Below, one piece after another: positions 10,042 to 60,187 of a stretch of DNA of 64,000 bases (positions are counted from its first letter, which is position 1; every line of letters starts with the position of its first letter). This DNA comes from Gemmatimonadota bacterium. GTDB taxonomy: Bacteria; Gemmatimonadota; Gemmatimonadetes; Gemmatimonadales; GWC2-71-9. A model generated the notes under the pieces. The model saw nothing but the letters and a program-made list of their open reading frames with translations, searched no databases and had not been told where the DNA came from. The DNA is taken from NCBI GenBank assembly GCA_031402225.1, contig JANNSD010000037.1, positions 15,283-79,282 on the forward strand, read 5' to 3'. The position numbers and the translations under genes are program-made.

Positions 10042-10113
10042 ACTGCAAGAGCGTGAGGAGGAACAGCAACTGCGTGAGGGGGAACAGCGACTGCGTGAGG
10101 AGTGAGGCGTGAG
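10042..10113 (+). repeat. Tandem 21-nt repeat decaying into GTGAGGN heptamers
   Basis: GCGTGAGGAGGAACAGCAACT (10051-10071) and GCGTGAGGGGGAACAGCGACT (10072-10092) match at 19/21 positions. They are followed by GCGTGAGGA GTGAGGC GTGAGAC. The array fills the pruA-to-next-gene spacer and contains the GAGGAG and GTG used as RBS and start of the next ORF. Confidence 0.9.
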
Positions 10114-10921
10114 ACGGTTCCCGGGCATCCTGATTGCGCTGCTTGCAACGACCACTCCGCTCTTTGCGCAGGTTCAGTTGGGTTATTCCGCCACCCAGAT
10201 GGCCTGCGCCCGCTTTCGTGAGTCGGTCCGCAGCGACCTCACCCTCCAGACCGCCGGCCGCACCGCATCGGCCAACTCCGGGCGCGACAGCCATCTCGTC
10301 ATGGCCGTGATGGCGTCACCCACTCCTCCCCGCCTGCTGTTCGTCGCCTGGTTTGATTCCCTGCGCGTGTGGCGCAGCGCGGGCGGCAACCGGGTCGAGC
10401 CCGATGCATCCGGGGTGCTCGGCGGGCGCTACCGGGGCGAGCTGCTACCCGACGGCAGCACGGTGACGCAGGTGGTTCCGTTCGTTCCGCAGGCGGTGCT
10501 CGAGGTGACCGAGCTGGCGGGCGTGCTTGACGACATGCTGCCTCGCCTGCCGCCACGGGTGCTGCAGCATGGCGAGGAGTGGCGGAGCGGGGATACCCTG
10601 GCCATCAGGCGATTGAGCGACAGCGCCAGCCTGCAGCGCTATCGCATCCAGCTTTCGCGCCAGGGCACTGTTCCGCCGCCCGCCGGTGATACGCTGACCC
10701 CAACCTACAGCCGCATGCTCAGCGATCGTGGCGTTGCGGCCTGGGACCCGGTGCGCGGGCCCATGCGCTATGACCATGCGATCGCGGTCGAGGCCAGTGT
10801 GCCGGTGGGTGGGGCGATCCGCAGCCCCGCGCGCTCGCTGGTCCAGCAGCAGATCGTGCTCGAGCGCCGGCCCGACCCTCCACTCGATTCCTGCCCGCCC
10901 TCGCTCTTCGCGGAGTACTAG
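10109..10921 (+). CDS. Secreted hypothetical protein
   Basis: 270 aa with a GTG start. The signal peptide is MRRFPGILIALLATTTPLFA/QVQ. I recognise no family. Its stop shares the palindrome CTAG (10918-10921) with the pqqE stop. Confidence 0.55.
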   Translation: MRRFPGILIALLATTTPLFAQVQLGYSATQMACARFRESVRSDLTLQTAGRTASANSGRDSHLVMAVMASPTPPRLLFVAWFDSLRVWRSAGGNRVEPDASGVLGGRYRGELLPDGSTVTQVVPFVPQAVLEVTELAGVLDDMLPRLPPRVLQHGEEWRSGDTLAIRRLSDSASLQRYRIQLSRQGTVPPPAGDTLTPTYSRMLSDRGVAAWDPVRGPMRYDHAIAVEASVPVGGAIRSPARSLVQQQIVLERRPDPPLDSCPPSLFAEY

Positions 10922-42200: not shown

Positions 42201-42621
42201 CTACCTGGATGCCCGGAACATCCTCGGCTTCACCAACACCCTGACGCAGTACGTGGTGACCAACAGCATCACCAGCGAGCTCGAGCAGGTTCAAAACTTC
42301 ACGGCTGACAGCAGCCGCAATGCGCAGGAAGGCCTCGGGAACGGTGTTTATGACGAGGCCACCGGTGCCATGAACCTCACGTTTGGTGGTGCCGGTGCGG
42401 GTGGCTGTGCCGATTGGGTCAACGCCAGCAACGCCGCCTCGGTCCCGAACTGCGTCTACCTCTCGCGGGCCGAACAGCGGTACGGCAATGGCGACGGCAT
42501 CTACTCGCTCCAGGAACAGCGGAACGCGTCGGACGCCCTGTACTTCTCCAACCAGGCCGCGCCCACGTTCTTCTACGGGCAGGGAACGGCACTGCGGCTC
42601 GGCGTGGAGTTCACTTTCTAA
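39265..42621 (+). CDS. Oar-type TonB-dependent outer-membrane barrel (CarboxypepD_reg domain + plug + large beta-barrel)
   Basis: Track ORF 39148..42621. I moved the start to ATG 39265 (GGAGGAAGG at 39251-39259). The signal peptide ends ALAA/QTG. GKIEGKVRDQAGAPIQSAQVFIVGT...TNAQGYYFINNVPAGTV is a carboxypeptidase-regulatory-like fold. The plug is LPVDRVGQVLQLQPGVV...ISIRGGRNDEAAFYVDGV. The barrel ends GVEFTF. Confidence 0.82.
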   Translation: MTQSGVSAFARLARQFALSAVLLLASAGALAAQTGKIEGKVRDQAGAPIQSAQVFIVGTAFSALTNAQGYYFINNVPAGTVAIRGAFIGFKKTEVEGIKVLAGQTVTQDIQLERATVTLDSLTVTTAANALVPRDEVTTKQRIDGQFTENLPVDRVGQVLQLQPGVVAEGANGAFISIRGGRNDEAAFYVDGVSVQPGNRGTGFVSAGTNASNATNGDGGVSATGVTFATNGFEEVSVTTGAAAAQYGNAQSGIVNITSRTGGGRFAGAVRAESDAMFGNTLGMGFNRFEGTLSGPLGLKGLSFSANVVGEGNESLRFGKGREDFPLFVTTGVDTVVSNENADGSFSDVNVNQYSIYTGDCDTFSGSTNADISSNNGEGCKGARVANSSFSAGQVAGNINYSYGNGSRLRIGAAGSQNQGKNFSYFNTLNPGVAANQQTGFRAQNAVYTLNWTQNLSKNAQRALALDVNLSYQTDRFIQSPFADGGPGTGTLGFYFSPIPLQYNFDFLDTRYDADGNEAAGGEYSKLDCFVRNIQSCLGAIDLGDADQVNAHQPQVTFRSNPYGLAQTFPDGGLASARLQLYKENRYVANATLDWQLDRYNRIQVGGEYFNFDMTSYSASISSQAFSDYWEESPTRYAAFIQDRLDIGDVVVQLGIRYDYFSTNANRWQGFPSISTNPALEPGEDPTSLYVADESFDYISPRVQVAFPVTERTNFRLSYAQSVQSPDFALTFSGINTDLSVTNTNNVYGQNVDYGKSIIFEFGIQHAFNDDMVLDISAYNRDNLANAAGRLVTSFNPVFQQNQDLRLITNSDFGNTKGIDLRLNRRFGQLFNGTLGYSFQSAQNTGNDPFTYLNFGSRIVNQVTGGNQPPPQAIAPVALSRPHQLSGSFGLTFPNGWKSGSTAGTIFQNVQVFAVFRFASGTAYTSCGNPDGNQSVLSGQVCGRGGFTNGLNNTRLPGFNQFDMRFVKGFNFGRSNLAFYLDARNILGFTNTLTQYVVTNSITSELEQVQNFTADSSRNAQEGLGNGVYDEATGAMNLTFGGAGAGGCADWVNASNAASVPNCVYLSRAEQRYGNGDGIYSLQEQRNASDALYFSNQAAPTFFYGQGTALRLGVEFTF

Positions 42622-42700
42622 CGTGGTGCATCTTCGGGCTCGGCCGAACCGCTGCAGGTTCGGTCGGGTCTGGTTGCGCTTCTACTCTGAGAGGACAGCA

Positions 42701-45700
42701 ATGAAAGTCTTGTTGCGTTCGAGAAGCCTCGCGGCGGGAGGACTGCTGGCGCTGGCGCTGGCAGCAATGATTCCTGCGACAGCCGCGGCCAAGCCGGAAC
42801 CGGGCGCGCGCCCGCGTGGCTTTCGCCTCTTCGCCCGGACACTGGGGGCGATCACGGTCAACCGGGTGTACCTTGGCCTCAGTTCGTCCAAGGGCAACAT
42901 CGGCGTCGACTCGACGAACTCGTCGACCATCGGCGGCGGATTCTGGCCGCGCGGCTCCGGCAACCAGTTCGTGTTCAACTCGGGCCTGCAGATCGCGGGC
43001 AAAGTAGACAACCCGGGCGGGGCCTGGGATGGTGACGTGACCGGCGCCTTCTTCTTCGACCCGAAGGGGACGACGGAGCACGGCGACGGTGTGGAGCCGA
43101 TTTACAACTTCGCGAACCCGGCTGACGCCGGCGCCTGGCCCGATGCCGCGAGGGTGCCAGTCGAGATCAATGAGGCCGACAACTTCTACAACCCGATCCT
43201 CCGTGGCATCATCTCGGCGTCTCAGGGCGACGTCTGGTTCGTGACCTGGGACGGCAACCCGACCCTGATTGCCGGCCGGCCGCACCCACTCGGCGTCGCC
43301 GTGGAGTCCCGCGGGCTTGCCTGGAACTACCCGACGGGCAACGAGGACATCGTCTACTTCACGTTCTCGTTCTACAACGTGACCGCGGCCGACCCGGCGG
43401 CCTACTCCGCCGTGCGGCCCGCGATCCGGCCTGTCATGCAGCAGCTAGGTGCGCAGTTCGTCAGCACGAACAGTGCAAGATTCCGGGTGGCCTTGCCGGC
43501 GGGCGGCTATGCCATTGACTCGCTGTTCTCGGCGTTCGCGGCCGACATGGACGTGTCCAACGCCGGCTCGAACTTCTGCTCGGTGAATATCCCGTTCGCG
43601 CTCGGATACTGCTACGAGCACACCTTTACATTCGACCCAACCAGTGGCGAGTCGTACGACAACCCGACCATCTGGGGCGCGCCGTTCTTCGGTGGCCCGG
43701 GCTTCGTGGGCGTGAAGTACCTCCGGAGTCCAACCGGCGTGGGTGAGATCCAGCTCTTCTCCAACACGATCAACTCGGCCACGGGCTTCCGTGATCCGGC
43801 CAACGTGTTCCAGCTCTTTCGCTACCTCTCCGGCAACCTGGATCCTTCGCAGGGCGACCAGGCCTGCAACGTCGCCGGCGGCTTTGCGGTGGGCATCTGC
43901 TTCATCAATCCAGCGTTTGCCGACGCCCGCTTCTACCAGTCCTCCACGGCGCTCAACCTGCCGCCGGGCGGCTTCGGCAGCATCGTGGTGGCATACATCT
44001 TCGCCGCCCCGGTGGCCATTCCCGGATTCACGCCGTCGGCCACCACCGACGTTACGCCAGGCAACCCGGTGATCCTGACCAACTCCGGGCTCCTGAGCGT
44101 CGGTGCCAACCAGATCGATTCGCTCACCGGATTCAACGGCTTCACCGACATCAACGGCGACGCGGAAGTTGAGCAGTCCGAGTTCCGCACCATTCCCGGC
44201 TCCCTGCTCAACAAGGCGCTCACGGCGCAGGTCATCTTCGACAATGGATTCCTGCTCCCGTTCGCGCCCACGTCGCCAAACTTCTACCTGATTCCCGGCA
44301 ACAATCAGGTGTCCATTGTCTGGCAGCCAACCTCCTCCGAGGTGACCGGCGACCCGTTCTACGCGGTGGCCAGCAACCCGGGGACCCCGCTCGAACCGAA
44401 CCTGCTGTACGACCCGAACTACCGGCAGTACGACGTCGAGGGCTACCGGCTCTATCGTGGCCGGGTGGACAACCAGGGGGCGCTCACGCTGGTGGCGCAG
44501 TTCGACTATGCCGGCACCGAAATGAACGACTTTTCCGGCCAGATCCAGCCGGTTTCCACCTGCGCACCCGAGCTGGGCGTCACCATCCTCTGCCCGGTGG
44601 CGTTCGACTACGTGCAGTTCACCGGTGTGCCGGCCACGGTGTCGACGGCCTACCCGCTGGTGGGCCAGTTTGTCCAGGTCAAGCTTGGGTCGGCGTCGCG
44701 CGTGGTCGTCAACCCAGGCCAGGTTCCCGGGGCTGACTGTATCGCCGCATCGTGTGCCCTGGTCATCGGCAACGCGGACACCGCACTCACGGGGTCGGGC
44801 GGACAGGGTGGCCCATACCCGCAGCTTAGCGACAACGGCGTGCCGTTCGGCTACATCGACCTCGAGCCGAAGAACAACTTCCGCTACTTCTACGCGGTCA
44901 CGGCGTTCGATGTGAACAGCTTCCAGTCGGGCCCGTCCAGCCTGGAGTCTCCGCGTATCGGCAAGCCGGTCACGCCCAGTGTCACCGGCTCCAACGTGGT
45001 GGCACCGCAGCTCACCTCCAGCCTGACCGGCACAGCTGGCACCGCACTCAATGTCGATGCACCCTTCGACATTGACGCGGCCACCGGCCGGTTCAGCGGC
45101 ACGCCACCGGCCACCAATGGCATCTCCGGTGCCTTTGCGCCGCTCATTCCGGCGCTGTTGCCCGCGCTGAACCTCGCTGCCAAGATCGACTCGGTGAGCG
45201 CGTACTTCAGCGAGAATCCGCTGTGTGGCGGCGTCACCAATTTCGGGGGCGGCGGCACCTGCTACATCTTTTACGTCACGTTCAAGAAGGATGGCGTCGA
45301 GACTCCGTTCGTCACGGTGACCCCGTGGCCAATCTGGAGTAACTTCGACGGCATCAACCAGTTTGAGGCGCAGCTCGGTGCCCAGCCGGTCAACATCGAC
45401 CCGGCGGCGGCAGCCACCTATGGTATCCCGGGCACGCTGACCGGCAGTGCCGCCGTAGGTATCACGCAGCGGCAGTACATCCAGTTCTCCAGCTTTGAGG
45501 GACAGGCGGCGAGGCGAGGGCTGGTGGCTAACAATACGGCCGCTCTGTGCGGAGCGAGCTTGACCAACTGCCAGACCTCGGTCTCGCCAGGAGGTTCCCG
45601 TTGGTTCCAGGGCGCCAATGAAACGCTGGACCACCCGGCAGTCAGCATCAAGGTCGGCGGGGGACTGACTGGCGTCGATACCGTCTGGGCGCCGATTCAC

Positions 45701-46690
45701 CATGTGCAGCGCGACCCAACGGCGCCAACCACGCCTGGTTCAGCGAGCAACAACGGCATTAACCAGTTCTGGGGCTACGGCTTTGCCGGCCTCGGCCGCC
45801 AAGCGGACGTGGTTCTCACATGGGGCGGCGGCGGCACCGCCTCGCTTCAGGACGTGACCCACGACGTACCGGTGGAGTTCAATACCCAGGCAGCCGCCTC
45901 CTGGGGCTTCGTCACCGATGCGGATGGCAGCGGCTACGTGGACTGGTCGGATTTCAACTATGCGCCCAATGTCGCGGAATGGTGGATCGCTCCGAACGGG
46001 GTTGATGCCGCAGACTTCTTTGGACCGGCCACCCTGGCGGATACCGTCCGCTACGTGAACACCGCCACCCCGGGTCCGGTCAGCACTCAGTTTGCCCCAG
46101 CCTCGGCAACCGGTGTGGGCATCGGCCTGTACATCAATGGTGAACGCTACATCTTCCAGCTCACCGGGGGTGCACTACCGGCGCCTGGTACCAAGTGGAC
46201 GCTCCGCACCTACAGCGGCATCGTACGCGCCGCGGCCGGAAGCGCAGCCGCCGGGACGCTGGCGGCAGGCACTACGCCCACCGGATATTCGTTCGCACCG
46301 GTCGTTCGCTCGCCGGGTATCGCCGGGCTCACGGTGCAGTTCACCGTTGCGCAGCCAACCGGCACGGTGGCCTCCACCAACCTGGACCTCCGGCAAGTGC
46401 ACACGGTGCCCGACCCGTACTACGTGACGAATGGCTTCGAGGCCACCACGGAATCGAAGGTGCTCCAGTTCGTGAACCTGCCAACCCAGGCTATCATCCG
46501 CATCTACACATCGAGCGGAATCCTGGTGAACCTGATCGAGCATAACTCGACCGATTTCAGCGGGTCGGAAGCCTGGAACCTCCGCAACCGGAACAACCAG
46601 GTGGTCGCATCGGGTGTGTACTTCTATATGATTGAAGCTGGCGACGCCCGACGGGTTGGTCGCTTCACGGTGGTGAACTTCGCCCAGTAG
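42701..46690 (+). CDS. Very large secreted protein with T9SS-type (Por_Secre_tail / FlgD-Ig-like) C-terminal sorting domain
   Basis: Track ORF 42383..46690. I moved the start to ATG 42701 (GAGAGGA upstream), giving 1329 aa. The signal peptide is MKVLLRSRSLAAGGLLALALAAMIPATAAA. The last ~100 aa (VHTVPDPYYV...AIIRIYTSSGILVNLI...EAWNLRNRNNQVVASGVYFYMIEAGD...FTVVN) follow the CTD pattern. An internal FN3-like unit (VSIVWQP...YDVEGYRLYRG...FRYFYAVTAFD) is split by an insertion. Confidence 0.75.
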   Translation: MKVLLRSRSLAAGGLLALALAAMIPATAAAKPEPGARPRGFRLFARTLGAITVNRVYLGLSSSKGNIGVDSTNSSTIGGGFWPRGSGNQFVFNSGLQIAGKVDNPGGAWDGDVTGAFFFDPKGTTEHGDGVEPIYNFANPADAGAWPDAARVPVEINEADNFYNPILRGIISASQGDVWFVTWDGNPTLIAGRPHPLGVAVESRGLAWNYPTGNEDIVYFTFSFYNVTAADPAAYSAVRPAIRPVMQQLGAQFVSTNSARFRVALPAGGYAIDSLFSAFAADMDVSNAGSNFCSVNIPFALGYCYEHTFTFDPTSGESYDNPTIWGAPFFGGPGFVGVKYLRSPTGVGEIQLFSNTINSATGFRDPANVFQLFRYLSGNLDPSQGDQACNVAGGFAVGICFINPAFADARFYQSSTALNLPPGGFGSIVVAYIFAAPVAIPGFTPSATTDVTPGNPVILTNSGLLSVGANQIDSLTGFNGFTDINGDAEVEQSEFRTIPGSLLNKALTAQVIFDNGFLLPFAPTSPNFYLIPGNNQVSIVWQPTSSEVTGDPFYAVASNPGTPLEPNLLYDPNYRQYDVEGYRLYRGRVDNQGALTLVAQFDYAGTEMNDFSGQIQPVSTCAPELGVTILCPVAFDYVQFTGVPATVSTAYPLVGQFVQVKLGSASRVVVNPGQVPGADCIAASCALVIGNADTALTGSGGQGGPYPQLSDNGVPFGYIDLEPKNNFRYFYAVTAFDVNSFQSGPSSLESPRIGKPVTPSVTGSNVVAPQLTSSLTGTAGTALNVDAPFDIDAATGRFSGTPPATNGISGAFAPLIPALLPALNLAAKIDSVSAYFSENPLCGGVTNFGGGGTCYIFYVTFKKDGVETPFVTVTPWPIWSNFDGINQFEAQLGAQPVNIDPAAAATYGIPGTLTGSAAVGITQRQYIQFSSFEGQAARRGLVANNTAALCGASLTNCQTSVSPGGSRWFQGANETLDHPAVSIKVGGGLTGVDTVWAPIHHVQRDPTAPTTPGSASNNGINQFWGYGFAGLGRQADVVLTWGGGGTASLQDVTHDVPVEFNTQAAASWGFVTDADGSGYVDWSDFNYAPNVAEWWIAPNGVDAADFFGPATLADTVRYVNTATPGPVSTQFAPASATGVGIGLYINGERYIFQLTGGALPAPGTKWTLRTYSGIVRAAAGSAAAGTLAAGTTPTGYSFAPVVRSPGIAGLTVQFTVAQPTGTVASTNLDLRQVHTVPDPYYVTNGFEATTESKVLQFVNLPTQAIIRIYTSSGILVNLIEHNSTDFSGSEAWNLRNRNNQVVASGVYFYMIEAGDARRVGRFTVVNFAQ

Positions 46691-46756: not shown

Positions 46757-47878
46757 ATGCGTGATTCTCAAAGACTTCGCTGGGCACTGGCGGGGATGCT
46801 GTTCATCGGGAGCCCGACGTTGCTTGCAGCCCAGAACACCACGGGCGACAACACGTCGTACGGCACCACGTCGGCGGAATTCCTGCTCCTTGGCGCTTCG
46901 GCGCGCGGCGCGGCACTCGGTACCTCGTTTTCCGCGATCGTAAACGACGTCAGCGCACTGTACTACAATCCAGCTGGTATCGCCTTACAGCGAACCAGCG
47001 GGTTCTCCGCCAGCGCGTACGATTACGTCGCGAGCACCAACTACGCCTGGGCCGGCCTCTCATTCCCGTTCAGCGGGCGGACCAGGGCCTTCGGCCTCCA
47101 GTTCGGCACCTTCGGTTTCGGTGACCAGCCGGTCTACACCGTCGAACAACCCGACGGCACAGGCTCGGTGTACTCGGTCAGCCAAACTTTCGGCGGCCTC
47201 ACCTACGCCCAGAACTTCTCCGACCGATTCAGCGCGGGCATCACGGCGAAGTTCATTTTCGACAATCTGGGTGGAGCCTCTGGCAGTGCGTTCGCGGTCG
47301 ATTTCGGCACGAACTTCCACTCCCGCCTTGGCGGGCGCCCGATTCAGTTCTCCTTCACCCTGACCAACTTGGGCACGTCGATCGATTACGGCGGCGACGC
47401 GCTGATCGTCCTGGTGCCGCGTGACTCGGTGCCCGGGGTGCCCACGGTGCCCACGAACCCGCAGCAGGGTGAGCTCAGCACCAAGGCGTCCAACCTCCCG
47501 ACCGTTTTCAAGGTGGCCCTGGGGTACGACCTGATTTCCAAGACCGATACACGCTGGACGCTGATTGCGGACTTCAACCAGCAGATCAGCAACAAGGCGG
47601 CGTTCGGTGTGGGCACGGAGGCGGCGTTCAAGCACCTCGGCGGGTCGGGCTTCGGCGCGGCGCTCCGGGCGAGCTACAGCTACCAGCCGGCCAACAACCT
47701 CACCCCGACGCAGCTCCCGAGCTCGGTGGCGGATGAGGAGAACCTGCAGGGGTTGGCGTTTGGCGGCGGTCTGTTCTTCGAGACGGCAGCCAAGTTCAGT
47801 CTTGGGCTCGACTATGCCTACCGGTACCTGGGCGTGCTCGGACCAACCAACTTCTTCACGTTCAGCGTCGGCTTCTGA
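46757..47878 (+). CDS. PorV/PorQ-like outer-membrane beta-barrel protein
   Basis: Track ORF 46703..47878. I moved the start to ATG 46757 (AGGAG at 46741-46745). The signal peptide ends LLAA/QNT. GTTSAEFLLLGASARGAALGTSFSAIVNDVSALYYNPAGIA is the conserved PorV-family opening. The protein has alternating beta-strand character and a terminal FTFSVGF. Confidence 0.7.
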   Translation: MRDSQRLRWALAGMLFIGSPTLLAAQNTTGDNTSYGTTSAEFLLLGASARGAALGTSFSAIVNDVSALYYNPAGIALQRTSGFSASAYDYVASTNYAWAGLSFPFSGRTRAFGLQFGTFGFGDQPVYTVEQPDGTGSVYSVSQTFGGLTYAQNFSDRFSAGITAKFIFDNLGGASGSAFAVDFGTNFHSRLGGRPIQFSFTLTNLGTSIDYGGDALIVLVPRDSVPGVPTVPTNPQQGELSTKASNLPTVFKVALGYDLISKTDTRWTLIADFNQQISNKAAFGVGTEAAFKHLGGSGFGAALRASYSYQPANNLTPTQLPSSVADEENLQGLAFGGGLFFETAAKFSLGLDYAYRYLGVLGPTNFFTFSVGF

Positions 47879-48030: not shown

Positions 48031-49452
48031 GTGAAATTCCGGAGCTGGCTCGCTCTGGCCCTGCTGACGGTGTGCCTTCAGGTCTCAGCGGCACTGGCCC
48101 AGGCTACCGACGGCCTCTCCCTCCGCGCCGTGCGATCCTTCCGCCCCGAGAACGGCGGCCAGACGCGCGTTCGCGTCCTGATACAAATACCGCTGTCGGT
48201 GCTGGAACCGGGGCGCGCCGGCGTGTCGTACCAGATGGGGGTGAAGGTCACCGACCAGGCGGGCATCACTTTGCATACTGATGCCTGGCGCACGCATATA
48301 CCGCTGCTGACCGGCGTCCCGGGAGAGTACGGCCTCGAGATGATCGACTTCGCCGTTGCGCCGGGCAAGTACACCGTGTCAGTCGAGGTCACCGATTCCC
48401 TGTCGGGGCGGCAGCTTGCAAACGGGATTGCGGTGGAGGGATACGCCAGCCGGCCCGATGCGTCCGACCTGACCCTTGCCCGCAGCATGCGGCTTGCCGG
48501 GGCCAGCGACTCCGTGCCCGGTCCCGGCGAGATCAGGAAGGGCAACACCCTCCTCAGTCCTGCCGCTCTGCTGCGCCTCACGCCGCTGGAGCCCGAGGCG
48601 TACTACGTGCTCGAGGCGTACAATGACGGCGCGGAAGAGTCTGGCACGATGGCAGTCGAGGTGCTCGATGCGGCAGGCAAGGCGGTGTTCCAGACCCCCA
48701 ACACCCCGGTGAAGGTTGCTGCCTCAGGAGGCATGCTGAAGGGACGCCTCAACCTGGAGGGCTTGCCCCAGGGCCAGTACCAGTTGAAGGTGCTGCTCCA
48801 GTTCGGCACCCGGGCGGTGGATCGCTCGGCACCGATGACCATGGCAGGCCTCGATACCACCCTGCAGCGGGAAGTGGCTCGCATTGGCGTCGAGCGGGTC
48901 AGCGACGAGGGGTACTTCAAGTACATGTCGAGCGAAGGCCTCGACTCCGCCTTTGCGCCGCTGTACTACCTCGCGACGCCCTCCGAGCTCAAGGTGTGGA
49001 ACAAGTCGCTCAGCGATGACGGGAAGAAGCGCTACCTGACGGAGTTCTGGCAGGCCCGCGACCCCAGCAAGGGCACGGCCACGAACGAGGCCCGCGACCA
49101 GTTCTATGCCGCGATCGCGTTCGCCAACAGGGAGTTCAAGGAACGCAGTGTACCCGGCTGGAAAACCGACCGGGGCAGGATCTTCGCCAAGTACGGTGTG
49201 GCGCCCTCGGTGCTGCGGCGGGCGCAAATACAACGGGCGCCGCCGTACGAGGTATGGAACTACCCGGAGAAGGGTTTCTGGTACATCTTCGCCGACCGGA
49301 CCGGCGTCGGGCAATGGCGCCTGCTGATTTCGGGCGACCTGAAGGAGCCGAGGCAGGCTGACTGGCGCGACATCCTGACGGAAGATGGTGTGCGCGATGC
49401 GGGGCGCTTCCTGAACGTGGACTTCTATGGCGGGCAGTGGAAGTCCTACTGA
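48031..49452 (+). CDS. GWxTD domain-containing secreted protein
   Basis: Track ORF 47962..49452. I moved the start to GTG 48031 (signal VKFRSWLALALLTVCLQVSAALA/QAT). The C-terminal part contains ...YLTEFWQARDP...FYAAIAFANREF...VPGWKTDRGRIFAKYG...YEVWNY, the motif that names the GWxTD family. Confidence 0.75.
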   Translation: MKFRSWLALALLTVCLQVSAALAQATDGLSLRAVRSFRPENGGQTRVRVLIQIPLSVLEPGRAGVSYQMGVKVTDQAGITLHTDAWRTHIPLLTGVPGEYGLEMIDFAVAPGKYTVSVEVTDSLSGRQLANGIAVEGYASRPDASDLTLARSMRLAGASDSVPGPGEIRKGNTLLSPAALLRLTPLEPEAYYVLEAYNDGAEESGTMAVEVLDAAGKAVFQTPNTPVKVAASGGMLKGRLNLEGLPQGQYQLKVLLQFGTRAVDRSAPMTMAGLDTTLQREVARIGVERVSDEGYFKYMSSEGLDSAFAPLYYLATPSELKVWNKSLSDDGKKRYLTEFWQARDPSKGTATNEARDQFYAAIAFANREFKERSVPGWKTDRGRIFAKYGVAPSVLRRAQIQRAPPYEVWNYPEKGFWYIFADRTGVGQWRLLISGDLKEPRQADWRDILTEDGVRDAGRFLNVDFYGGQWKSY

Positions 49453-53150: not shown

Positions 53151-56100
53151 GTGAAGCGCCTTCTTCTGGCCCTGGGCGTGGTGGCCTGCAGTCCGGTGGT
53201 GGCAGGTGCGCAAGCCGATTCTCTTGCCCCGCCGCCCGATACCACCTCCGTGTCCGGGGTGGGGGTGAAGGCCGGGCTGGGGGCGCCACCCCTCACGCTG
53301 CGCGTGCCACCCCAGTATCGGCAGTCCTGGGCACTCGGGCCGCGGCCCCGTCCGGGCGCCACCGCCGCTGCGTGGCAAGCCACCCTCAACGCCGCTGTTG
53401 ATTCCACCCTGAGCGCCCAAGCCAGCAGCCAGGTGCTCATCAGCCTGTACGGGGGGAGCCAGGAGTCGGCCGACTCCGCCGAGGCGGCGTTGCAGAGGCG
53501 CGGGCTGTTCGGGATCAACCGCAGTATCGTGGACCTGACGCTCGACGGAACTATCCGGCTCGAGTTGCGCGCCGATCGTCTGAAAAACCTTCGCTGCACC
53601 CCGGCATCGCTCAGCGATCCTTCCAGCGGATGCCGGGGCGACATCAACGGTCCGCGGCTCGACAACCAGATGACCATCCGCTCGGGCGGCGTGATTGGTC
53701 GGCGGCTCCGCGTCAATGTCGACTGGGATACGCAGCGCGACTTCACCAATAGTAACATTATCCAGGTGTTCTACGAGGGGCTCGAGGACGAGCCGATCCG
53801 GCGTGTCGAGGTTGGCAGCGTCGTGTTCCGGCCGCCGTCGTCGCGCTATCTCGCCGCGTCCATTCCCACGAACAACTTCGGTGCCAGTGCCCTTGTCGAG
53901 CTGGGGCAGCTCCAGATGCAGGTGTTGGCGGCGACCCAGAAGGGCAGCGCCATCGGGCAGCGGGTGTTCACGATCGGCCAGGCGGTCGCGACACCACAGG
54001 ATCGCAGCGTGCGCGACCTGGACTTCGAGTTCGGCCGCTTCTACTGGACCGTCGATCCGCGCACGCTGCCGAACTTTCCCGCCATCGACGCGCTCAGCCT
54101 CGATACCCTGAGCGTATCGCCCGGCGTGCGGCCGGCGGAGCTCAGGGTGTACCGCTACCGGGTGCCGCGGCTCACGGGGGGAGTGGACCCGAACCTCGGC
54201 GGCATACCCGCCTGCGCCTTCCAAGGGGGGACAACCGGCAGGACCTTCGGCCCGGTACCGTGGCAGCTGCTCGTGCTGGGCGCCGACTACTACACCGATC
54301 CCTCGGGCCTCTGGATCGCCATGTCCCAGCGGGTAGACCTGCAGGCCGACTACCTCGCCGTGAGCTACGTGACCGAGGCTGGCACGACGGTCGGCAGCTT
54401 TCCCGGTGCTCCCAAGCCGGGCGCGGGCACCACCTGCGCCTCGGTCGACACGCTACGCATGATTGTCGAGCCGCTGGTGGGCAGCGACCAGCCATCGTTC
54501 CATCACGAGATGCGGCAGTTCTACCGGGTGGCGGGCCAGGACCTCGATCCGGCGTCGCTCCAGGTGGATCTCGCGGTGAATCGCTCGGAGCGACCGCTGC
54601 CGCCCTCGAGCTTCTCCACGTACCTGAGCGCGCTCGGCCTGTCCATACCCACGGACGAGAATACCTTCGACTGGGCGAACCGGCTCTTCCCGCGTGCGCG
54701 CGACCCAGGGGCCGACCTGCTCGTTCGAGAGGCGTTCCTCGCGTTCCCCAACATCAAGCCGTTCGGCAATCCCGCCGTGCTGGGGCCGACGGAACGGAAC
54801 GACTCCCTGTACCAGACGCCGGTCTACCTGCTGTTCTCGCAGGGACCGCCGAGCAAGTTCCTGTTCCGGCTGCGATACAGTTCCAGCGGTGCCGGTGACC
54901 GCAGCGCCCTCAACCTGAACGCGCTGCAGGTCCTCGAGGGTTCCGAGAAGCTGTTCCTGAGTGGTCGGCAGCTGACCCGCGGGACTGACTACACGATCGC
55001 CTACGAAACGGGGTTGGTCACCTTCCTCAATCCCGAGGCGCTCTTCGGCAGCGGGGTGGGCCAGATCACGGCGCAGTTCGAGGAGCGCGGGGTGTTCGCG
55101 GTGGCACCGACGTCGATTTTCGGTCTCACCACGCGCTACGACCTGGGCCGGACCGGCAGCGTCAATTTCGTCGGTATCTACCAGCGCGAAAATTCGGCGT
55201 TTGCACGCCCGGCGCTCGGTTTCGAGGCCAGCGCCAATCTGATCGCCGGCGCCAACACCGACCTGCATTTCAGACCCACGGCGTTGAGCCGGCTGGTCAG
55301 CTCCATTACCAACCGCAACGGATCGTCCGAGGCATTCCTCGACATCAATGGCGAGTTCGCCTTCACCCGGCCCGACCCCAACCGGACCGGGCAGGCGTAC
55401 ATCCAGGAGTTCGAGGGGGTCTCGGGCAGCGCGGTGAGCCTGGGGGCGGCGGTGTGGCAGTACGGCAGCGTGCCCCAATCCACCGTCGGCCTCGATCCAT
55501 CACTGGGCTTCGGGGCCACCTTCGACACCGCGGACGCAGTGCAGATGATCTGGCAGAACCTGATTCCGGGGCCGGATGGCGGGGTGGTGCAGTTCTTTCC
55601 CGAGGACATCGACCCGAACATCGTGACCGTGGGGAACCAGCAGGTGCCGGAGACGGTGATGTACCTGACCCTGCATGCGGACACGGCGGGCGGCGTGGTG
55701 CAGCAGAACAACCGGTCGCTCTGGACCCAGCCGCCGAGGCCCAACACACCGCGTTGGCGCTCGATGCAGACGGCCATCAGCACGGTGGGCGTCGATTTCA
55801 CCGCCAATACCTACATCGAATTCTGGCTCTACACCGACGCGGCCAAGAGCGCCGAGACCGCCGGGGTGAACCTGGTGTTCGATCTGGGGCAGGTGAACGA
55901 GGACGCGGTGGGGGCGGCACCGGACACGCTCAAGGTTGAGGCCGGCGACTCCCTCTATGTGGGCCGGCAGTATGTGGGCGTCGGTGTGCTGAATTCGGAG
56001 CGACAGTCCACCGGCATCTTCAACGCGCAGGCCGATGACATCGGCATCCTGGGGGACATCCCGCCAATCGTGCTGCCCAACCTGGATACCGACCCCGCCT

Positions 56101-59100
56101 TCCCGCTATGCCAGACGGTGCTCGGCACCACGGTGCAGATCTTCCCGTGGGGCGACCTGAGCGCGCGCTGCACTCGCGGCAACGGGTTCCTGGATACCGA
56201 GGACCTGAACGGCGACAACGTCCTCAATGCCCAGGGCCCCAACGACAACGTCAACCGCTACGTCGTCAGCCTGACTGACACCCAGTACGTGGTGCGGAAG
56301 GGCGTTACCGACCCGGCCACGGGCGCGGGCTGGACCCTGTACCGCCTGCCGCTGCGCACGCCCACCGCGGTCATCGGCACGCCCAACATCCGGCTGGTCC
56401 AGGCACTGCGCGTCACCCTCGTGGCACCACCGGCGCTCGATGACCTCGTGGCGCGAGTGGCGCTCTCGCGCCTGACCTTCGTCGGTGCGCCCTGGCTGGC
56501 GCGGGCACCCGCCCCCATCGCGGGCATTGCCGGATCCACCGCGGAGGCAACGGGCAGCGTGGTCGTGTCGGTGGTGTCGACCCTCGACAAGAACCTCGGC
56601 TATGTGCCGCCACCGGGCGTGATTGTCGGCCTGCAGGACCGCCAGGGCAGTGCCCAGGACATCGGGGCCGAGATCGACGAGAAGTCGCTGCGCGTCGTCG
56701 CCCGGCAGCTGGCACAGGGTACGCGCGCGGAGGCCTACTTCAGGTTCCCGGCGGGTAACCAGCGATTCCTGTCCTATCGGCAGCTGCGGGTGTGGATGCG
56801 TGGTGGTCGCGACCTGCCCGACTGGGACGCCGGCGGGCTGCTGGGCTACATCAAGGTGGAGAGCGACGCCGACAACTTCTACATGTACCAGACGACGCTG
56901 CGCAGCAACGGTGCGGAAGAGGCCTGGAACCCGGAAGTGACGGTGGACCTGGAGGTGTGGGCCCTGCTCCGGGCCAGGATCGAGTCCGAGGTGGAACAGG
57001 GCCTTCCGCCGTCGGGTGCGGACGTGTGCGGCGGGGATCCCGCGGCCTATGTGGCGTGCCAGGACGGGTACATCGTGCACATCCTCAGCCCGAACGTGAA
57101 TCCCCCCAACCTGGCAGCGGCGCAGGGCCTGTCCACCGGGATGATACGCGTGGCGGCGGGAGTGTCTGACTCGACCGAGCTGTGGGTTGACGACGTACGG
57201 CTTTCCGAACCGATCACCACCATGGGCTCAGCCTGGGCGCTCGACGCGAGGCTGGCGGCGGGCGACGTGTTCGACCTCTCGTTCCTCATTTCCAGCGTCA
57301 ACGGGCAATTCCGCCAGCTCGGAGCCCAGCCCAGCTTCCGCACCACCGGCGGGCTGATCACGGCCGCGAATTTCCGCCTGGACCGGTTCCTCCCGACGTC
57401 GGTTGGCCTGCTCATTCCCGTCAACCTGTCCTATGCCGCGACGAACGTGAACCCGCAGCTGCTCACCGGCAGCGACATCATCGCCGAGGCCCTGCCGGGC
57501 CTCCGCAAGCCGAACAGCAACACCGGCAACCTGAACGTCCTGGTGCGTCGATCGGCGCGCGGATCCAGTTCCCTGATGCGCATACTCGCCGATCCGCTGG
57601 CGCTCACCGCCGGTTACCTGAGGGGGCGGGGCCAGACGGAGCTGTCGCGGTCGACCACGGACAACGTCAGCGCGGCGCTGTCGTACACTATTTCCGTGAC
57701 CCGGCGCGGGAAACCGATCCGCCTGACGGGCCTGGTCAACGGCCTCCCGACCTTCCTGCGGGAGAGCGACTTCGGCAACAGCCTCAAGACGGCGTCCTAC
57801 ACGCTCGTGCCGACGAGCCTGCGCCTGCGCAGCGGGCTCGCACGCGAGCAGACGAACTTCTTCTCGTATGTTTCTCCCGTCGAGCGCTCGGTCGACGCAC
57901 TGGCGGTACCCGCGCTGGCCCTCAACTACATCTGGCGGAATGCGGCGGGACTGACGTGGCAGCCCCTCGGCATGCTGCTCTTCAACGTGGACGTGGCCAG
58001 CTCGCGCGACCTGCGGCAGTACGGTGACTCGACCCCGCAGGCGCGACTGGCCACCGCCGAGCGCCAGGACCTCCTGGGTATCGATGTGGGCGTGGAGCGC
58101 GACCGGACGTCCGGCACCAGCCTGGTGATCGCGCCGAAAATCTCCTCCTGGTTCCGGCCGAGATTCGGGACGACCAGCAACTTCGTGCTCAGCCGGTACC
58201 TCAACAGCCGCCAGCTGGTGCGCACCGATGGCGACACGGCCGGTGCGTTCATCCTGCCGCAGACATTTTCCAACCTGCGCGCGTATGAGTGGGGATTTTC
58301 CATCGACTACGCCCGGGGGCTCCGGCAAGTGGTGGGGGATTCCTCCGGCGTGGGAAACCTGATCCGCCGCTTCCGGGCGCTGGATGTCACGCGGCGCACG
58401 ACCCGTACATCCACCTTTGACCTGGCGGTGTTCCAGCCGTCCCTCGGCTACATCCTGGCACTGGGCGGGCTGTCGAGCTTCCTGTCGCAGGACGGGCAAC
58501 CCGCCATCGGCGCCACCCAGACGGTGGCGACCCAGCTGGCCACGGGACTCGACTTCGGGTTCGGCCTCTCGATCACCGGGCTCTACAGCGAGATCGCGAC
58601 GGATCGTTACCAGACCATTGGCGGCGGGCAGCGCCTCGCGGTGGTGTTCCAGAGAGAATGGCCCTCCGGTCAGGTGCGGTTCACTCGCCCGTTTGCGCGC
58701 GGCCCCTTCGCGCTGATCTCGGTGGGGGCCACGATACGGCAGCGTAAGGGGTCCACCACTCAGCCGGTGAGCGCCACCGTCGTTTCGGTGGTGGCCAACC
58801 AGACCCGGAACATCTCGCCCGAACTCGGCATCACCTTTCGCAACGGCATTGGCCTGGCCAGCAACCTGAGCCTCCTGAAGCAGGAGTCCGCCACGAACGG
58901 GGCACTGACGCTGCTGGACCAGGCCGACCTCAACGGCAGCCTCACCTACGCCTTCCCGTTGCCGCGCGCGCTGAGCCGCGCCCGCAAGCTCGCGCGCTCA
59001 TCCCTCAGCGTCGTGGTGTCCAAGGCCAGCCAGTGCCTGGTCCGCGCCGCCAATCTGGACTGCCAGGTCATCAACGATACGCGGCGGCAGGAGTATCGCG

Positions 59101-59252
59101 GCAGCATCGATACCGATATCATCTCCACCCTGACGGCCGGCCTTCAGCTGGGCTATACGGTGAACGACTTCCGCAGCCTCGACCGGAAGAGCTCCCAGCT
59201 GTTCGTGGTCGCGTCACTCAACCTGTCGATCTTTGCCGGGGACTATCGATGA
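53151..59252 (+). CDS. sprA: SprA/Sov-like giant outer-membrane protein (T9SS translocon family)
   Basis: 2033 aa with a GTG start. The signal peptide is MKRLLLALGVVACSPVVAGA/QAD. The region IIQVFYEGLEDEPIRRVEVGSVVFRPPSSRYLAASIPTNNFGASALVELGQLQMQVLAATQKGS matches my memory of the conserved SprA N-terminal block (YEG-EDEI-...-AGNVS-...-LFG-...-SQQKS). The rest has beta-rich composition throughout. Confidence 0.7.
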   Translation: MKRLLLALGVVACSPVVAGAQADSLAPPPDTTSVSGVGVKAGLGAPPLTLRVPPQYRQSWALGPRPRPGATAAAWQATLNAAVDSTLSAQASSQVLISLYGGSQESADSAEAALQRRGLFGINRSIVDLTLDGTIRLELRADRLKNLRCTPASLSDPSSGCRGDINGPRLDNQMTIRSGGVIGRRLRVNVDWDTQRDFTNSNIIQVFYEGLEDEPIRRVEVGSVVFRPPSSRYLAASIPTNNFGASALVELGQLQMQVLAATQKGSAIGQRVFTIGQAVATPQDRSVRDLDFEFGRFYWTVDPRTLPNFPAIDALSLDTLSVSPGVRPAELRVYRYRVPRLTGGVDPNLGGIPACAFQGGTTGRTFGPVPWQLLVLGADYYTDPSGLWIAMSQRVDLQADYLAVSYVTEAGTTVGSFPGAPKPGAGTTCASVDTLRMIVEPLVGSDQPSFHHEMRQFYRVAGQDLDPASLQVDLAVNRSERPLPPSSFSTYLSALGLSIPTDENTFDWANRLFPRARDPGADLLVREAFLAFPNIKPFGNPAVLGPTERNDSLYQTPVYLLFSQGPPSKFLFRLRYSSSGAGDRSALNLNALQVLEGSEKLFLSGRQLTRGTDYTIAYETGLVTFLNPEALFGSGVGQITAQFEERGVFAVAPTSIFGLTTRYDLGRTGSVNFVGIYQRENSAFARPALGFEASANLIAGANTDLHFRPTALSRLVSSITNRNGSSEAFLDINGEFAFTRPDPNRTGQAYIQEFEGVSGSAVSLGAAVWQYGSVPQSTVGLDPSLGFGATFDTADAVQMIWQNLIPGPDGGVVQFFPEDIDPNIVTVGNQQVPETVMYLTLHADTAGGVVQQNNRSLWTQPPRPNTPRWRSMQTAISTVGVDFTANTYIEFWLYTDAAKSAETAGVNLVFDLGQVNEDAVGAAPDTLKVEAGDSLYVGRQYVGVGVLNSERQSTGIFNAQADDIGILGDIPPIVLPNLDTDPAFPLCQTVLGTTVQIFPWGDLSARCTRGNGFLDTEDLNGDNVLNAQGPNDNVNRYVVSLTDTQYVVRKGVTDPATGAGWTLYRLPLRTPTAVIGTPNIRLVQALRVTLVAPPALDDLVARVALSRLTFVGAPWLARAPAPIAGIAGSTAEATGSVVVSVVSTLDKNLGYVPPPGVIVGLQDRQGSAQDIGAEIDEKSLRVVARQLAQGTRAEAYFRFPAGNQRFLSYRQLRVWMRGGRDLPDWDAGGLLGYIKVESDADNFYMYQTTLRSNGAEEAWNPEVTVDLEVWALLRARIESEVEQGLPPSGADVCGGDPAAYVACQDGYIVHILSPNVNPPNLAAAQGLSTGMIRVAAGVSDSTELWVDDVRLSEPITTMGSAWALDARLAAGDVFDLSFLISSVNGQFRQLGAQPSFRTTGGLITAANFRLDRFLPTSVGLLIPVNLSYAATNVNPQLLTGSDIIAEALPGLRKPNSNTGNLNVLVRRSARGSSSLMRILADPLALTAGYLRGRGQTELSRSTTDNVSAALSYTISVTRRGKPIRLTGLVNGLPTFLRESDFGNSLKTASYTLVPTSLRLRSGLAREQTNFFSYVSPVERSVDALAVPALALNYIWRNAAGLTWQPLGMLLFNVDVASSRDLRQYGDSTPQARLATAERQDLLGIDVGVERDRTSGTSLVIAPKISSWFRPRFGTTSNFVLSRYLNSRQLVRTDGDTAGAFILPQTFSNLRAYEWGFSIDYARGLRQVVGDSSGVGNLIRRFRALDVTRRTTRTSTFDLAVFQPSLGYILALGGLSSFLSQDGQPAIGATQTVATQLATGLDFGFGLSITGLYSEIATDRYQTIGGGQRLAVVFQREWPSGQVRFTRPFARGPFALISVGATIRQRKGSTTQPVSATVVSVVANQTRNISPELGITFRNGIGLASNLSLLKQESATNGALTLLDQADLNGSLTYAFPLPRALSRARKLARSSLSVVVSKASQCLVRAANLDCQVINDTRRQEYRGSIDTDIISTLTAGLQLGYTVNDFRSLDRKSSQLFVVASLNLSIFAGDYR

Positions 59253-60187
59253 TGCGGTACCGCCTGCCTGGGTCGCTGGCCCTGCTCCTCCTGATGGCGG
59301 GCTGCGGTTCGGCGCCACCCGCTCCGCCCCGCGAGTTCGACGGGGCCGCCGCCATGCGCTACGTGGAGGCGCAGGTCGCCTTCGGGCCGCGCGTGCCGGG
59401 CAGCGAGGCCCACCAGCACATGGCGGCGTGGCTCGATTCGCTGGCGCGGGCCCGGGCCGATTCGGTGATCATTCAGGACTGGGTCAACGTCACTGCCAAG
59501 GGCGTGAGGATCCCGCTGCGCAACGTGATGATGCGGTTCAACCCGACGGCGACCGACCGCATTCTCTATCTCGCGCACTGGGACACCCGACCCACCGCGG
59601 ACAAGGCGATCAACCCGGCGGACCGAAGCACGCCGATTCCGGGTGCGAACGACGGGGCCTCCGGCGTTGCGGTGCTGCTGGGCGTGGCCGATGCGCTGCG
59701 GAAGACCCCGTCTGCGCTCGGCGTGGACCTGCTCTTCGTGGACGGCGAGGACTTCGGCAGCTTCGAGGACTCGACCGAAACGCTGCTCGGGTCTCGCTAC
59801 TACGCGAAACACCAGGTGCCTGGACCCAAGCCGCTCTTCGCCGTGCTGTTCGACATGGTCGGCGACCGTGACCTGCAGATCTACCAGGAGGGGAATTCCC
59901 TCCTGGGCGCGCCAGAGGTGGTCGATCGGGTGTGGGACGCCGCGAAGATCGCCGGCTACTCGAAGGTCTTCATTGCGGCCCCGCGCCACACCCTCGTCGA
60001 CGACCACGTGCCCCTGCAGCAGGCCGGCATCCGCGCCATCGACGTGGTCGACTACGACTATGGCAGCAACAACAGCCTCTGGCACACCCCCGACGACACC
60101 ATCGACAAGCTGAGCGTGGAGAGCCTGCAAGCGGTGGGTGACGTAGCGATGGCCGTGATACGCCTCGAGGCTGGCGGGATAAAGTAG
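59249..60187 (+). CDS. Lipoprotein M28-fold peptidase / glutaminyl-peptide cyclotransferase-like enzyme
   Basis: Track ORF 59033..60187. I moved the start to ATG 59249, which overlaps the sprA stop (ATGA). The lipobox is LLLLMAGC. YLAHWDTRPTADK...IPGANDGASGVAVLLGVADAL...VDLLFVDGEDFG...WHTPDDT give an M28/animal-type glutaminyl cyclase metal-site layout. Confidence 0.75.
   Translation: MMRYRLPGSLALLLLMAGCGSAPPAPPREFDGAAAMRYVEAQVAFGPRVPGSEAHQHMAAWLDSLARARADSVIIQDWVNVTAKGVRIPLRNVMMRFNPTATDRILYLAHWDTRPTADKAINPADRSTPIPGANDGASGVAVLLGVADALRKTPSALGVDLLFVDGEDFGSFEDSTETLLGSRYYAKHQVPGPKPLFAVLFDMVGDRDLQIYQEGNSLLGAPEVVDRVWDAAKIAGYSKVFIAAPRHTLVDDHVPLQQAGIRAIDVVDYDYGSNNSLWHTPDDTIDKLSVESLQAVGDVAMAVIRLEAGGIK

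Follow-up and report, generated by a model that had tools for sequence, protein, structure and literature searches.

A predicted type II glutaminyl cyclase encoded directly downstream of sprA and a probable Q-rule for exported proteins in Gemmatimonadota

In the present study, we analyzed a 64,000-nucleotide stretch of DNA from a Gemmatimonadota bacterium (contig JANNSD010000037.1 of assembly GCA_031402225.1, positions 15,283 to 79,282; hereafter the window), in which a gene for a lipoprotein with an M28 peptidase domain directly follows sprA, the gene for the outer-membrane translocon in type IX secretion systems (T9SS). Its sequence and predicted structure identify this lipoprotein as a type II glutaminyl cyclase (QC) of the bacterial kind, with predicted activity, and not as an aminopeptidase, and the exported proteins of this lineage appear to begin mostly with glutamine (Gln) at the first position after the signal peptide (+1). 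On the basis of these sequences and by analogy with Porphyromonas, the pyroglutamate capping of exported proteins described for Bacteroidetes very probably also works in Gemmatimonadota. The presence of a Bacteroidota-type QC and of a probable Q-rule, i.e., the exposure of Gln by most substrates of signal peptidase I, in this phylum is apparently unreported, as is the conserved sprA-QC operon.

The study that described the Q-rule makes no mention of Gemmatimonadetes, its coverage comprising Bacteroidetes, Chlorobi, Spirochaetes, Chlamydiae, and Cyanobacteria (Bochtler et al., 2018; PMC5837995). The rule was described as confined to Bacteroidetes, with high values occurring here and there in other groups, such as 77% in Ignavibacterium album and 55% in Chloroherpeton, and T9SS and high Q-values were noted to co-occur across lineages (PMC5837995). 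It was subsequently stated to apply to Bacteroidetes and not to other phyla (Mizgalska et al., 2023; PMC10653852). For T9SS genes, a possible occurrence in Gemmatimonadetes has been reported (PMC11285876). In our literature search, no report was found that joins Gemmatimonadetes or Gemmatimonas with glutaminyl cyclase or with pyroglutamate, and none linking glutaminyl cyclase with sprA or describing a sprA-QC operon.

The features of the QC gene are as follows. Residues are compared with PgQC, the enzyme from Porphyromonas gingivalis; alignment A1 contains the window QC, PgQC, the Tannerella enzyme TfQC, and Gemmatimonadales homologues, and alignment A2 contains the window QC and 46 homologues drawn from five or more phyla (Gemmatimonadota, Bacteroidota, Ignavibacteria, KSB1, Kryptonia, Zhuqueibacter, and Armatimonadota).

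59249..60187, plus strand: gene encoding a 312-aa lipoprotein, a glutaminyl cyclase of type II (animal/Bacteroidota type; PDB search, AlphaFold2, and Foldseek)
59249..59305, plus strand: predicted lipoprotein signal peptide with the lipobox LMAG-C; Cys19 codon TGC at 59303-59305
59651..59656, plus strand: Asp135-Gly136, predicted zinc ligand and the following Gly (PgQC Asp149-Gly150); invariant in A1 and A2
59747..59752, plus strand: Glu167-Asp168, predicted catalytic Glu and Bacteroidota-type Asp zinc ligand (PgQC Glu182-Asp183); invariant
60080..60085, plus strand: Trp278-His279, predicted substrate-pocket Trp and third zinc ligand (PgQC Trp298-His299); His279 invariant in A2

The N-terminus of the product is of the lipoprotein type (MMRYRLPGSLALLLLMAG-C19), and the lipobox MAGC given in a preliminary description of this DNA was confirmed as LMAG-C19, the Cys of which is invariant in A2. 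The 312-aa product contains one Pfam domain, Peptidase_M28 (PF04389; E = 6e-33), and the NCBIfam search returned no cyclase-specific model and only weak aminopeptidase matches far under their cut-offs. In a sequence search of the PDB, the six best matches were Bacteroidota type II QCs and their structural-genomics twins, namely, TfQC (6qro; E = 2e-58), PgQC (6qql) and 7cje (both approximately 1e-53), 3gux, 3tc8, and 4fuu (3e-50 for the last), whereas the first true aminopeptidase was found at E = 7e-11 and animal cyclases at approximately 1e-7. An AlphaFold2 model built on A2 had a mean predicted local distance difference test (pLDDT) score of 94.4, and the 50 PDB structures that Foldseek ranked highest for it were all glutaminyl cyclases, none being an aminopeptidase. 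The bacterial QCs came first, followed by those of Fimbriiglobus and Acidobacteriales and then by the insect, tick, and human enzymes; the model superimposed on PgQC 6qql with template modelling (TM) scores of 0.86/0.93 and a root-mean-square deviation (rmsd) of 1.9 Å, and on TfQC with an rmsd of 1.8 Å.

The predicted active site agrees with this grouping. The zinc ligands of PgQC are Asp149, Asp183, and His299, among which Asp183 is a Bacteroidota-specific replacement of human Glu202 (Taudte et al., PMC7948796), and these residues align with Asp135, Asp168, and His279 of the window protein. The residue after PgQC Asp149 is Gly in these cyclases and Asn or Asp in aminopeptidases, in which the position of PgQC Trp298 is occupied by Tyr (PMC7948796). 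Glu167, Asp202, and Asp251/Asp252 align with the equivalents of human Glu201, Asp248, and Asp305, and are invariant; the roles of Glu201 and Asp248 were taken from PMC7948796. Positions that are invariant in the QC alignments are Cys19, His110, Asp112, Asp135-Gly136, Glu167-Asp168, Asp202, Asp251-Asp252-His253, and His279. The Gly after the zinc-binding Asp in QCs is linked to the loss of the second zinc site, and the role of the Asp305 equivalent is that described in the human QC literature. The proposal of the preliminary description that the enzyme is of the Porphyromonas type is thus in accordance with its sequence, predicted fold, and active-site residues, all of which group it with type II QCs and not with M28 aminopeptidases.

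Over the whole mature protein, the window QC is 36-39% identical to the Bacteroidota enzymes PgQC (PG2157), TfQC, PiQC, BtQC, and PdQC (6qql, 6qro, 4fuu/7d1d, and 3tc8), with which it shares the fold (rmsd of the model, 1.8-1.9 Å), the Asp/Asp/His zinc ligands, the Asp-Gly pair, and the lipoprotein anchor. It differs from them in a Thr in place of PgQC Trp193 and in a shorter loop before Trp-His. The genetic context also differs, in that the window gene follows sprA with a 4-nt overlap, whereas the P. gingivalis gene heads an operon with genes for an Fe-S protein and hemG (PMC10653852). Unlike the Bacteroidota hosts, the host of the window QC belongs to Gemmatimonadota and has a genome with a G+C content of 68%. 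The enzymes of Fimbriiglobus ruber and an Acidobacteriales bacterium (7d1b and 7d18) are type II QCs from bacteria other than Bacteroidota and share its fold, with Foldseek E = 1e-28 and 1e-24, but are more distant (28-30% identity), the window enzyme being nearer to those of Bacteroidota; no Q-rule or sprA linkage is known to have been reported for them. The human and insect QCs (for example, 2afm and 4f9u) have in common with it the M28-derived fold, the use of a single zinc ion, the catalytic Glu, and the equivalents of Asp248 and Asp305, but show approximately 20% identity, have Glu instead of Asp as the third zinc ligand, and are secreted or Golgi proteins, not lipoproteins. The di-zinc M28 aminopeptidases (SgAP of Streptomyces griseus, AAP of Vibrio/Aeromonas, and Bacillus YwaD, 6hc6) share PF04389 and the alpha/beta fold; however, they match at E = 7e-11 or weaker, are absent from the 50 best structural matches, and have Asn/Asp after the bridging Asp and Tyr at the position of the QC Trp.

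The second line of evidence is the residue that follows the signal peptides of exported proteins. The relevant features of the window, with predicted cleavage sites marked by a slash, are listed below.

53211 (CAA codon), plus strand: Gln of SprA, the signal peptide of which ends in VAGA/Q; [A/G]-Q in 20 of 22 readable orthologues
7412..8410, plus strand: molybdate/tungstate-type periplasmic binding protein (SBP_bac_11, E = 2e-34); PVAG/Q, CAG at 7496
10109..10921, plus strand: 270-aa exported protein of unknown family without a Pfam match; PLFA/Q, CAG at 10169
39265..42621, plus strand: Oar-type TonB-dependent barrel (CarboxypepD_reg, Plug, and TonB_dep_Rec); ALAA/Q, CAG at 39361
46757..47878, plus strand: PorV/PorQ-family barrel (NF033709); LLAA/Q, CAG at 46832
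48031..49452, plus strand: GWxTD-domain protein (TIGR04514, E = 3e-25); AALA/Q, CAG at 48100
42674..46690, plus strand: giant protein to which a T9SS C-terminal domain has been ascribed, without a Pfam match; an exception, with TAAA/K

The preliminary description had counted Gln at +1 in six of the eight Sec-type signal peptides that it identified in the window. This count was borne out for predicted sites: the six Gln codons are all present at the positions listed, and each follows a pattern that is allowed by the (-3,-1) rule. By Pfam and NCBIfam, four of the six belong to families of extracytoplasmic proteins (solute-binding, TonB-dependent barrel, PorV/PorQ-family barrel, and GWxTD). Gln accounts for 3.2% of the residues in the proteins of the window, and the probability of six out of eight is 2e-5 at a Gln rate of 10% and 0.011 at a rate of 30%, the latter being the by-eye rate in a GC-rich control. 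The cleavage sites in the window are predictions, and a predictor that is blind to +1 cannot split ties such as LLA/AQ versus LLAA/Q. A lipobox-like VVAC in SprA (residues 10-13; 53178-53189) was considered as a sign that this protein is a lipoprotein and was rejected because the Cys is not conserved in its orthologues.

Conservation among relatives provides our best evidence that Gln at +1 is more than a chance feature of the window. Among the SprA orthologues with a readable N-terminus, [A/G]-Q ends the signal peptide in 20 out of 22, and the peptide is otherwise unalignable. The 120 best homologues of the periplasmic binding protein, which is unrelated to T9SS, were 62-95% identical to it and yielded 99 distinct complete N-termini; [AGS]-Q occurs in 95 of these and is followed, at a distance of 7-8 residues, by the conserved GPLVVFNAGSL. 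Of the 95, 87 have A, L, or V at position -3, while positions +2 and +3 take 11 and 13 residue types, respectively. Since Gln is fixed while its neighbours vary, this evidence is independent of the chosen cleavage site, and we take Gln at +1 to be selected in this lineage. ModA of Escherichia coli begins with Asp at a comparable place, and, thus, Gln is not a constant of the binding-protein family. Three of the four exceptions in this family (P0201, P0214, and P0221) have a lipobox Cys instead of Gln; from these sequences, it looks as if the N-terminus of the binding protein needs to be blocked in one way or the other. Relatives of the Oar-type barrel in other loci also have A/Q or G/Q, and one locus of a close relative (L094) has orthologues of the PorV-like barrel with the same LLAA/Q and of the GWxTD protein with VLLA/Q.

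In order to compare shares among groups, genes were called in the window, in 80 QC loci (described below), in a 350-kb region of Sinorhizobium meliloti pSymB (positions 1-350000, 63% G+C; L081 and L083-L088), for which we know of no such cyclase, and in 50 kb of E. coli DNA. Home-made signal-peptide rules that are blind to +1 were applied, and +1 shares were estimated by expectation-maximisation over all (-3,-1)-compatible sites. Gln was the commonest residue in the window (0.55), Gemmatimonadota (0.43 in 47 loci), Bacteroidota (0.46), and other members of the Fibrobacteres-Chlorobi-Bacteroidetes (FCB) group (0.38), was second to Glu in pSymB (0.20), and was absent from six Armatimonadota candidates; this predictor is poor and its confidence intervals are wide, such that these values show only that Gemmatimonadota resemble the positive control. 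The first of three home-made predictors called 27 of the 51 genes in the window secreted, and the stricter ones still admitted Rossmann-fold N-termini, ComEA anchors, and pilins. Due to this weakness, the predictors were used only for like-for-like comparisons of groups and not for true shares.

When credible substrates were read by eye, Gln was found at +1 in approximately 15 out of 19 in the Bacteroidota loci, which is near the published 71-77%, and in approximately 9 out of 30 in pSymB. In the Gemmatimonadota loci, A/Q or G/Q was present in the families of SprA and of the Oar-type barrel as well as in 10 out of 12 singleton families. A further sample was taken from a relative with a QC that is 85% identical to that of the window (100 kb of contig_2654 of ERZ25039554; loci L089-L098), in which six or seven out of ten credible signal-peptidase-I substrates have Gln at +1: SprA, two Oar-type barrels, the PorV-like barrel, the GWxTD protein, a TonB receptor, and perhaps a 564-aa protein. 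In this contig, a leftward walk repeated the genes of the window, and the last 20 kb rightward contained only cytoplasmic housekeeping genes. In total, Gln was found in approximately 18 out of 26 families (P = 4e-5 at the 30% of the control), and, by manual reading, the share among the sampled substrates is approximately 60-75%.

The pattern resembles the Q-rule of Bacteroidetes (PMC5837995, PMC10653852) in that a majority of the sampled substrates of signal peptidase I would expose Gln, in the occurrence of a lipoprotein QC, and in a compliance that is highest among outer-membrane and T9SS proteins. It differs in that the share in Gemmatimonadota is an estimate from sampled sequences, and in that the signal peptides often have a charged residue 2-7 positions before A/Q. 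Many of these peptides carry Arg, Lys, Asp, or Glu there, for example RLLSA/Q, RAGA/Q, KPAAA/Q, RVSA/Q, and EVSA/Q (L002:3768, L036:3729, L037:3723, L040:3656, and L022:2065, respectively). A c-region of this type is unusual and could mislead standard predictors. The first polar residue after the hydrophobic core was tried as a site-free statistic and failed for Gemmatimonadota because of these charged residues.

The QC gene lies in the following arrangement.

53151..59252, plus strand: sprA, T9SS outer-membrane translocon, 2033 aa (TIGR04189 match)
59249..59252, plus strand: ATGA, 4-nt overlap of the cyclase start with the sprA stop, read from the sequence
50437-51504 and 51504-53048, minus strand: lptG and lptF, divergent from sprA; conserved left border of the block (tblastn synteny)
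60244-60885, 60965-62680, and 62677-63816, plus strand: comEA-like gene, pilB, and pilT; conserved right side of the block (family matches and synteny)

The product of sprA matched the curated SprA/Sov profile TIGR04189 with E = 1e-130 and 437 bits (cut-off 200), and the PorV-like barrel matched NF033709 (PorV_fam, the PorV/PorQ family) with E = 4e-39 and 135 bits (cut-off 90), the specific PorV and PorQ models scoring under their own cut-offs; by curated profiles, the window thus encodes two T9SS components, the SprA/Sov translocon and a PorV-type shuttle barrel, among its genes. The sprA gene stops with TGA at 59250-59252, and the ATG at 59249-59251 opens the 312-aa open reading frame that extends to 60187, which confirms the overlap noted previously. 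The preliminary description had also called the cyclase translationally coupled to the translocon. Overlaps of 4 nt are a common type of junction in compact operons; based on this overlap, the co-transcription of sprA and the QC gene is near certain, and translational coupling, for which the overlap is the evidence at hand, is plausible. No terminator-like site was detected in the stretch of the window from sprA to comEA, and the QC gene would be the second gene of a sprA-QC(-comEA-pilB-pilT) transcription unit.

A homology scan with one genome per species provided the 80 QC loci with flanks: Gemmatimonadota contributed 47, Bacteroidota 15, and Armatimonadota 5, another 4 are unclassified, and the remaining 9 come from Ignavibacteria, Kryptonia, KSB1, Zhuqueibacter, or Chlorobiaceae. 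The best 120 homologues of the window QC are 61-98% identical to it, and those that are named belong to Gemmatimonadales; some carry the label glutaminyl-peptide cyclotransferase, and many database copies are labelled M28 family peptidase. The source organism is a soil-type Gemmatimonadales bacterium, and the earlier impression that the genome is not from Bacteroidota was correct. Using tblastn with the window proteins, the block of lptG-lptF on the minus strand followed by sprA-QC-comEA-pilB-pilT was found throughout Gemmatimonadota in the set of 47 loci; lptG/lptF orthologues in relatives match Pfam LptF_LptG. The QC gene is directly downstream of sprA in approximately 30 of these loci, and the 4-nt NTGA overlap (ATGA, GTGA, or TTGA) occurs in 15 loci besides the window, such that the junction itself is conserved among relatives; it consists of a 1-nt overlap in two other loci and of gaps of 2-249 nt in others. 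Same-strand adjacency with a gap of up to approximately 240 nt was also found in KSB1 (L048 and L063), Ignavibacteria (L067), Zhuqueibacter (L070), and an unclassified metagenome-assembled genome (MAG; L057), with lptGF again on the far side where the flank was long enough. In the tblastn analysis of the flanks, no Bacteroidota locus out of 15 had sprA beside the QC gene. The sprA of the closest long relative was called as two genes with a 450-nt gap between them (L089:3903-6647, 914 aa, and L089:7098-10004, 968 aa), which may reflect a genuine division of the gene, a frameshift, or a fault in the assembly. In the same contig, a 1069-aa Oar-type barrel with SLGA/Q (L094:14057-17266) lies as an additional gene between a UbiA-like gene and lptG, a place that is without a gene in the window.

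In 13 Gemmatimonadota loci, the QC gene directly follows lptF with no sprA in between (L001, L005, L007, L015, L020, L022, L027, L028, L030, L041, L052, L066, and L075). The junction lies approximately 7-10 kb into each of these loci, one of which is labelled Gemmatimonas sp. Signal peptides with A/Q are still present in six of them (L005, L007, L020, L022, L027, and L028).

In a maximum-likelihood tree of 47 cyclases, all Gemmatimonadota sequences form one clade with a support of 100/98, separate from those of Bacteroidota, Ignavibacteria, KSB1, and Armatimonadota. This single clade suggests that the gene is old in the phylum, and the pattern fits long vertical inheritance over recent transfer. 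A contig labelled uncultured Eubacteriales (L065) carries a QC that nests within the Bacteroidota clade and was probably mis-binned. Lipoprotein QC homologues with 39-46% identity were also found in Armatimonadota, including Chthonomonas-type MAGs (L039, L053, L054, L064, and L074); this phylum is outside the FCB group, and only six signal-peptide candidates are present in its flanks.

Considering the Porphyromonas model, in which the cap stabilises exported proteins against degradation (PMC5837995, PMC10653852, PMC7948796), we propose the following mechanism. Sec would export the preprotein and signal peptidase I would remove the signal peptide, upon which most substrates in this lineage would expose an N-terminal Gln at the predicted cleavage sites. 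The zinc-dependent QC, which is most likely tethered by its lipid anchor on the periplasmic side of a membrane, would then convert the exposed Gln into pyroglutamate, and this cap may protect exported proteins from degradation as it does in Porphyromonas. The predicted substrates include SprA, the PorV-like barrel, Oar-type barrels, the GWxTD protein, and the periplasmic binding protein.

We consider the capping of exported Gln N-termini in general by the lipoprotein type II QC to be a probable explanation as a whole, and several points weigh against it. The activity and localisation of the Gemmatimonadota QC and the formation of pyroglutamate are all predictions from sequences and a structural model. 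PgQC Trp193 aligns with Thr, and the loop bearing PgQC Phe294 is 3-7 residues shorter, such that the alignment offers no equivalent of the latter. The automatic predictor is weak, recovering 42-52% Gln in the Bacteroidota positive control versus approximately 71% in the literature, and the Gln share was obtained from small samples curated by eye. The pSymB control reaches 20-30% Gln, which is above the expectation for a proteobacterium, with Glu being the commonest residue there. PilQ, a lytic transglycosylase, and CopC of the sampled relative do not have Gln at +1, nor does its M15 peptidase, which was not flagged as a substrate by the filter. The predicted mature CopC (L093:5747-6130) would start with His (HNRLVKAEP), implying that signal peptidase I cuts behind an Arg, an odd site for this enzyme; a mature N-terminal His is presumably what homology demands of CopC and may be a functional reason for this exception.

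An alternative reading is that the QC is dedicated to T9SS, with pyroglutamate on SprA, PorV-type barrels, or cargo being needed for the assembly or function of the translocon, hence the link with sprA. This would explain why sprA is directly upstream in approximately 30 Gemmatimonadota loci and why the adjacency extends to KSB1, Ignavibacteria, Zhuqueibacter, and the unclassified MAG, and it is consistent with the preponderance of outer-membrane barrels and T9SS-linked proteins among the complying proteins in our sample and with the co-occurrence of T9SS and high Q-values across lineages (PMC5837995). However, the 13 loci in which the QC gene follows lptF without sprA still encode exported proteins with A/Q, the T9SS-unrelated binding protein keeps Gln in 95 of 99 homologues, none of the Bacteroidota loci has sprA beside the QC gene, the P. 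gingivalis QC gene is in an operon with hemG (PMC10653852), and Armatimonadota, outside the FCB group, carry the QC too. Accordingly, the specific link between the QC and the translocon that was suggested previously was not borne out, and we regard a dedicated role as unlikely. Since the QC is kept where sprA is absent from the locus, A/Q persists there, and the binding protein complies, we favour a general envelope-protein capping enzyme that is co-expressed with the translocon, the operon linkage being old but incidental; relatives tolerate gaps of up to 249 nt between the two genes.

It is very unlikely that the enrichment in Gln is real but results from a preference of signal peptidase I or from spontaneous cyclisation, with the M28 lipoprotein being an ordinary periplasmic aminopeptidase. 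The weak aminopeptidase matches and the lack of a cyclase model in NCBIfam, the name M28 family peptidase in many database copies, and the two PgQC pocket residues that are not conserved would fit an aminopeptidase, whereas all 50 best structural matches are cyclases, the sequence matches to characterised bacterial QCs surpass those to any aminopeptidase by 40-50 orders of magnitude, and the residues that distinguish QCs (Asp-Gly, Glu-Asp, and Trp-His; PMC7948796) are present and invariant. Equally improbable is that the rule in the window is an artefact of picking Gln-first cleavage sites, with a true share no higher than in many bacteria: although the +1-blind predictor, which breaks ties arbitrarily, places its top site before Gln in only one of nine window candidates, the S. 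meliloti control reaches 20-30%, and only two of six new families in the newly sampled sequence of the relative comply, Gln is fixed at one position while its flanks and the signal peptide vary (95/99 and 20/22), the binding-protein members without Gln are mostly lipoproteins (3/4), and approximately 18 of 26 families comply versus 30% in the control (P = 4e-5).

A more speculative history, to which we assign only a small chance, is that the lptG-lptF/sprA-QC arrangement is ancestral to the FCB group and that the QC began as a factor for type IX translocon biogenesis, with the Q-rule later spreading from the machinery and cargo of T9SS to the remaining exported proteome; Bacteroidota would then have split the genes, and SprA and its partner barrels would need pyroglutamate for their stability or assembly where the operon was kept. 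Whether pyroglutamate capping has a functional connection with type IX secretion could be approached genetically in a simple way through the sprA-QC operon. If capping works as proposed, mature N-termini in these phyla would be blocked to Edman sequencing, proteomics would mis-assign them unless pyroglutamate were included among the permitted modifications, and signal-peptide predictors could exploit the Gln. The literature treats the Q-rule and its essential cyclase as peculiar to Bacteroidetes, and they are being pursued as a target for narrow-spectrum drugs against oral pathogens. The presence of the same predicted enzyme, apparently inherited vertically, together with a selected Gln at +1 in Gemmatimonadota, a widespread soil phylum, points to an old trait of a larger bacterial group.

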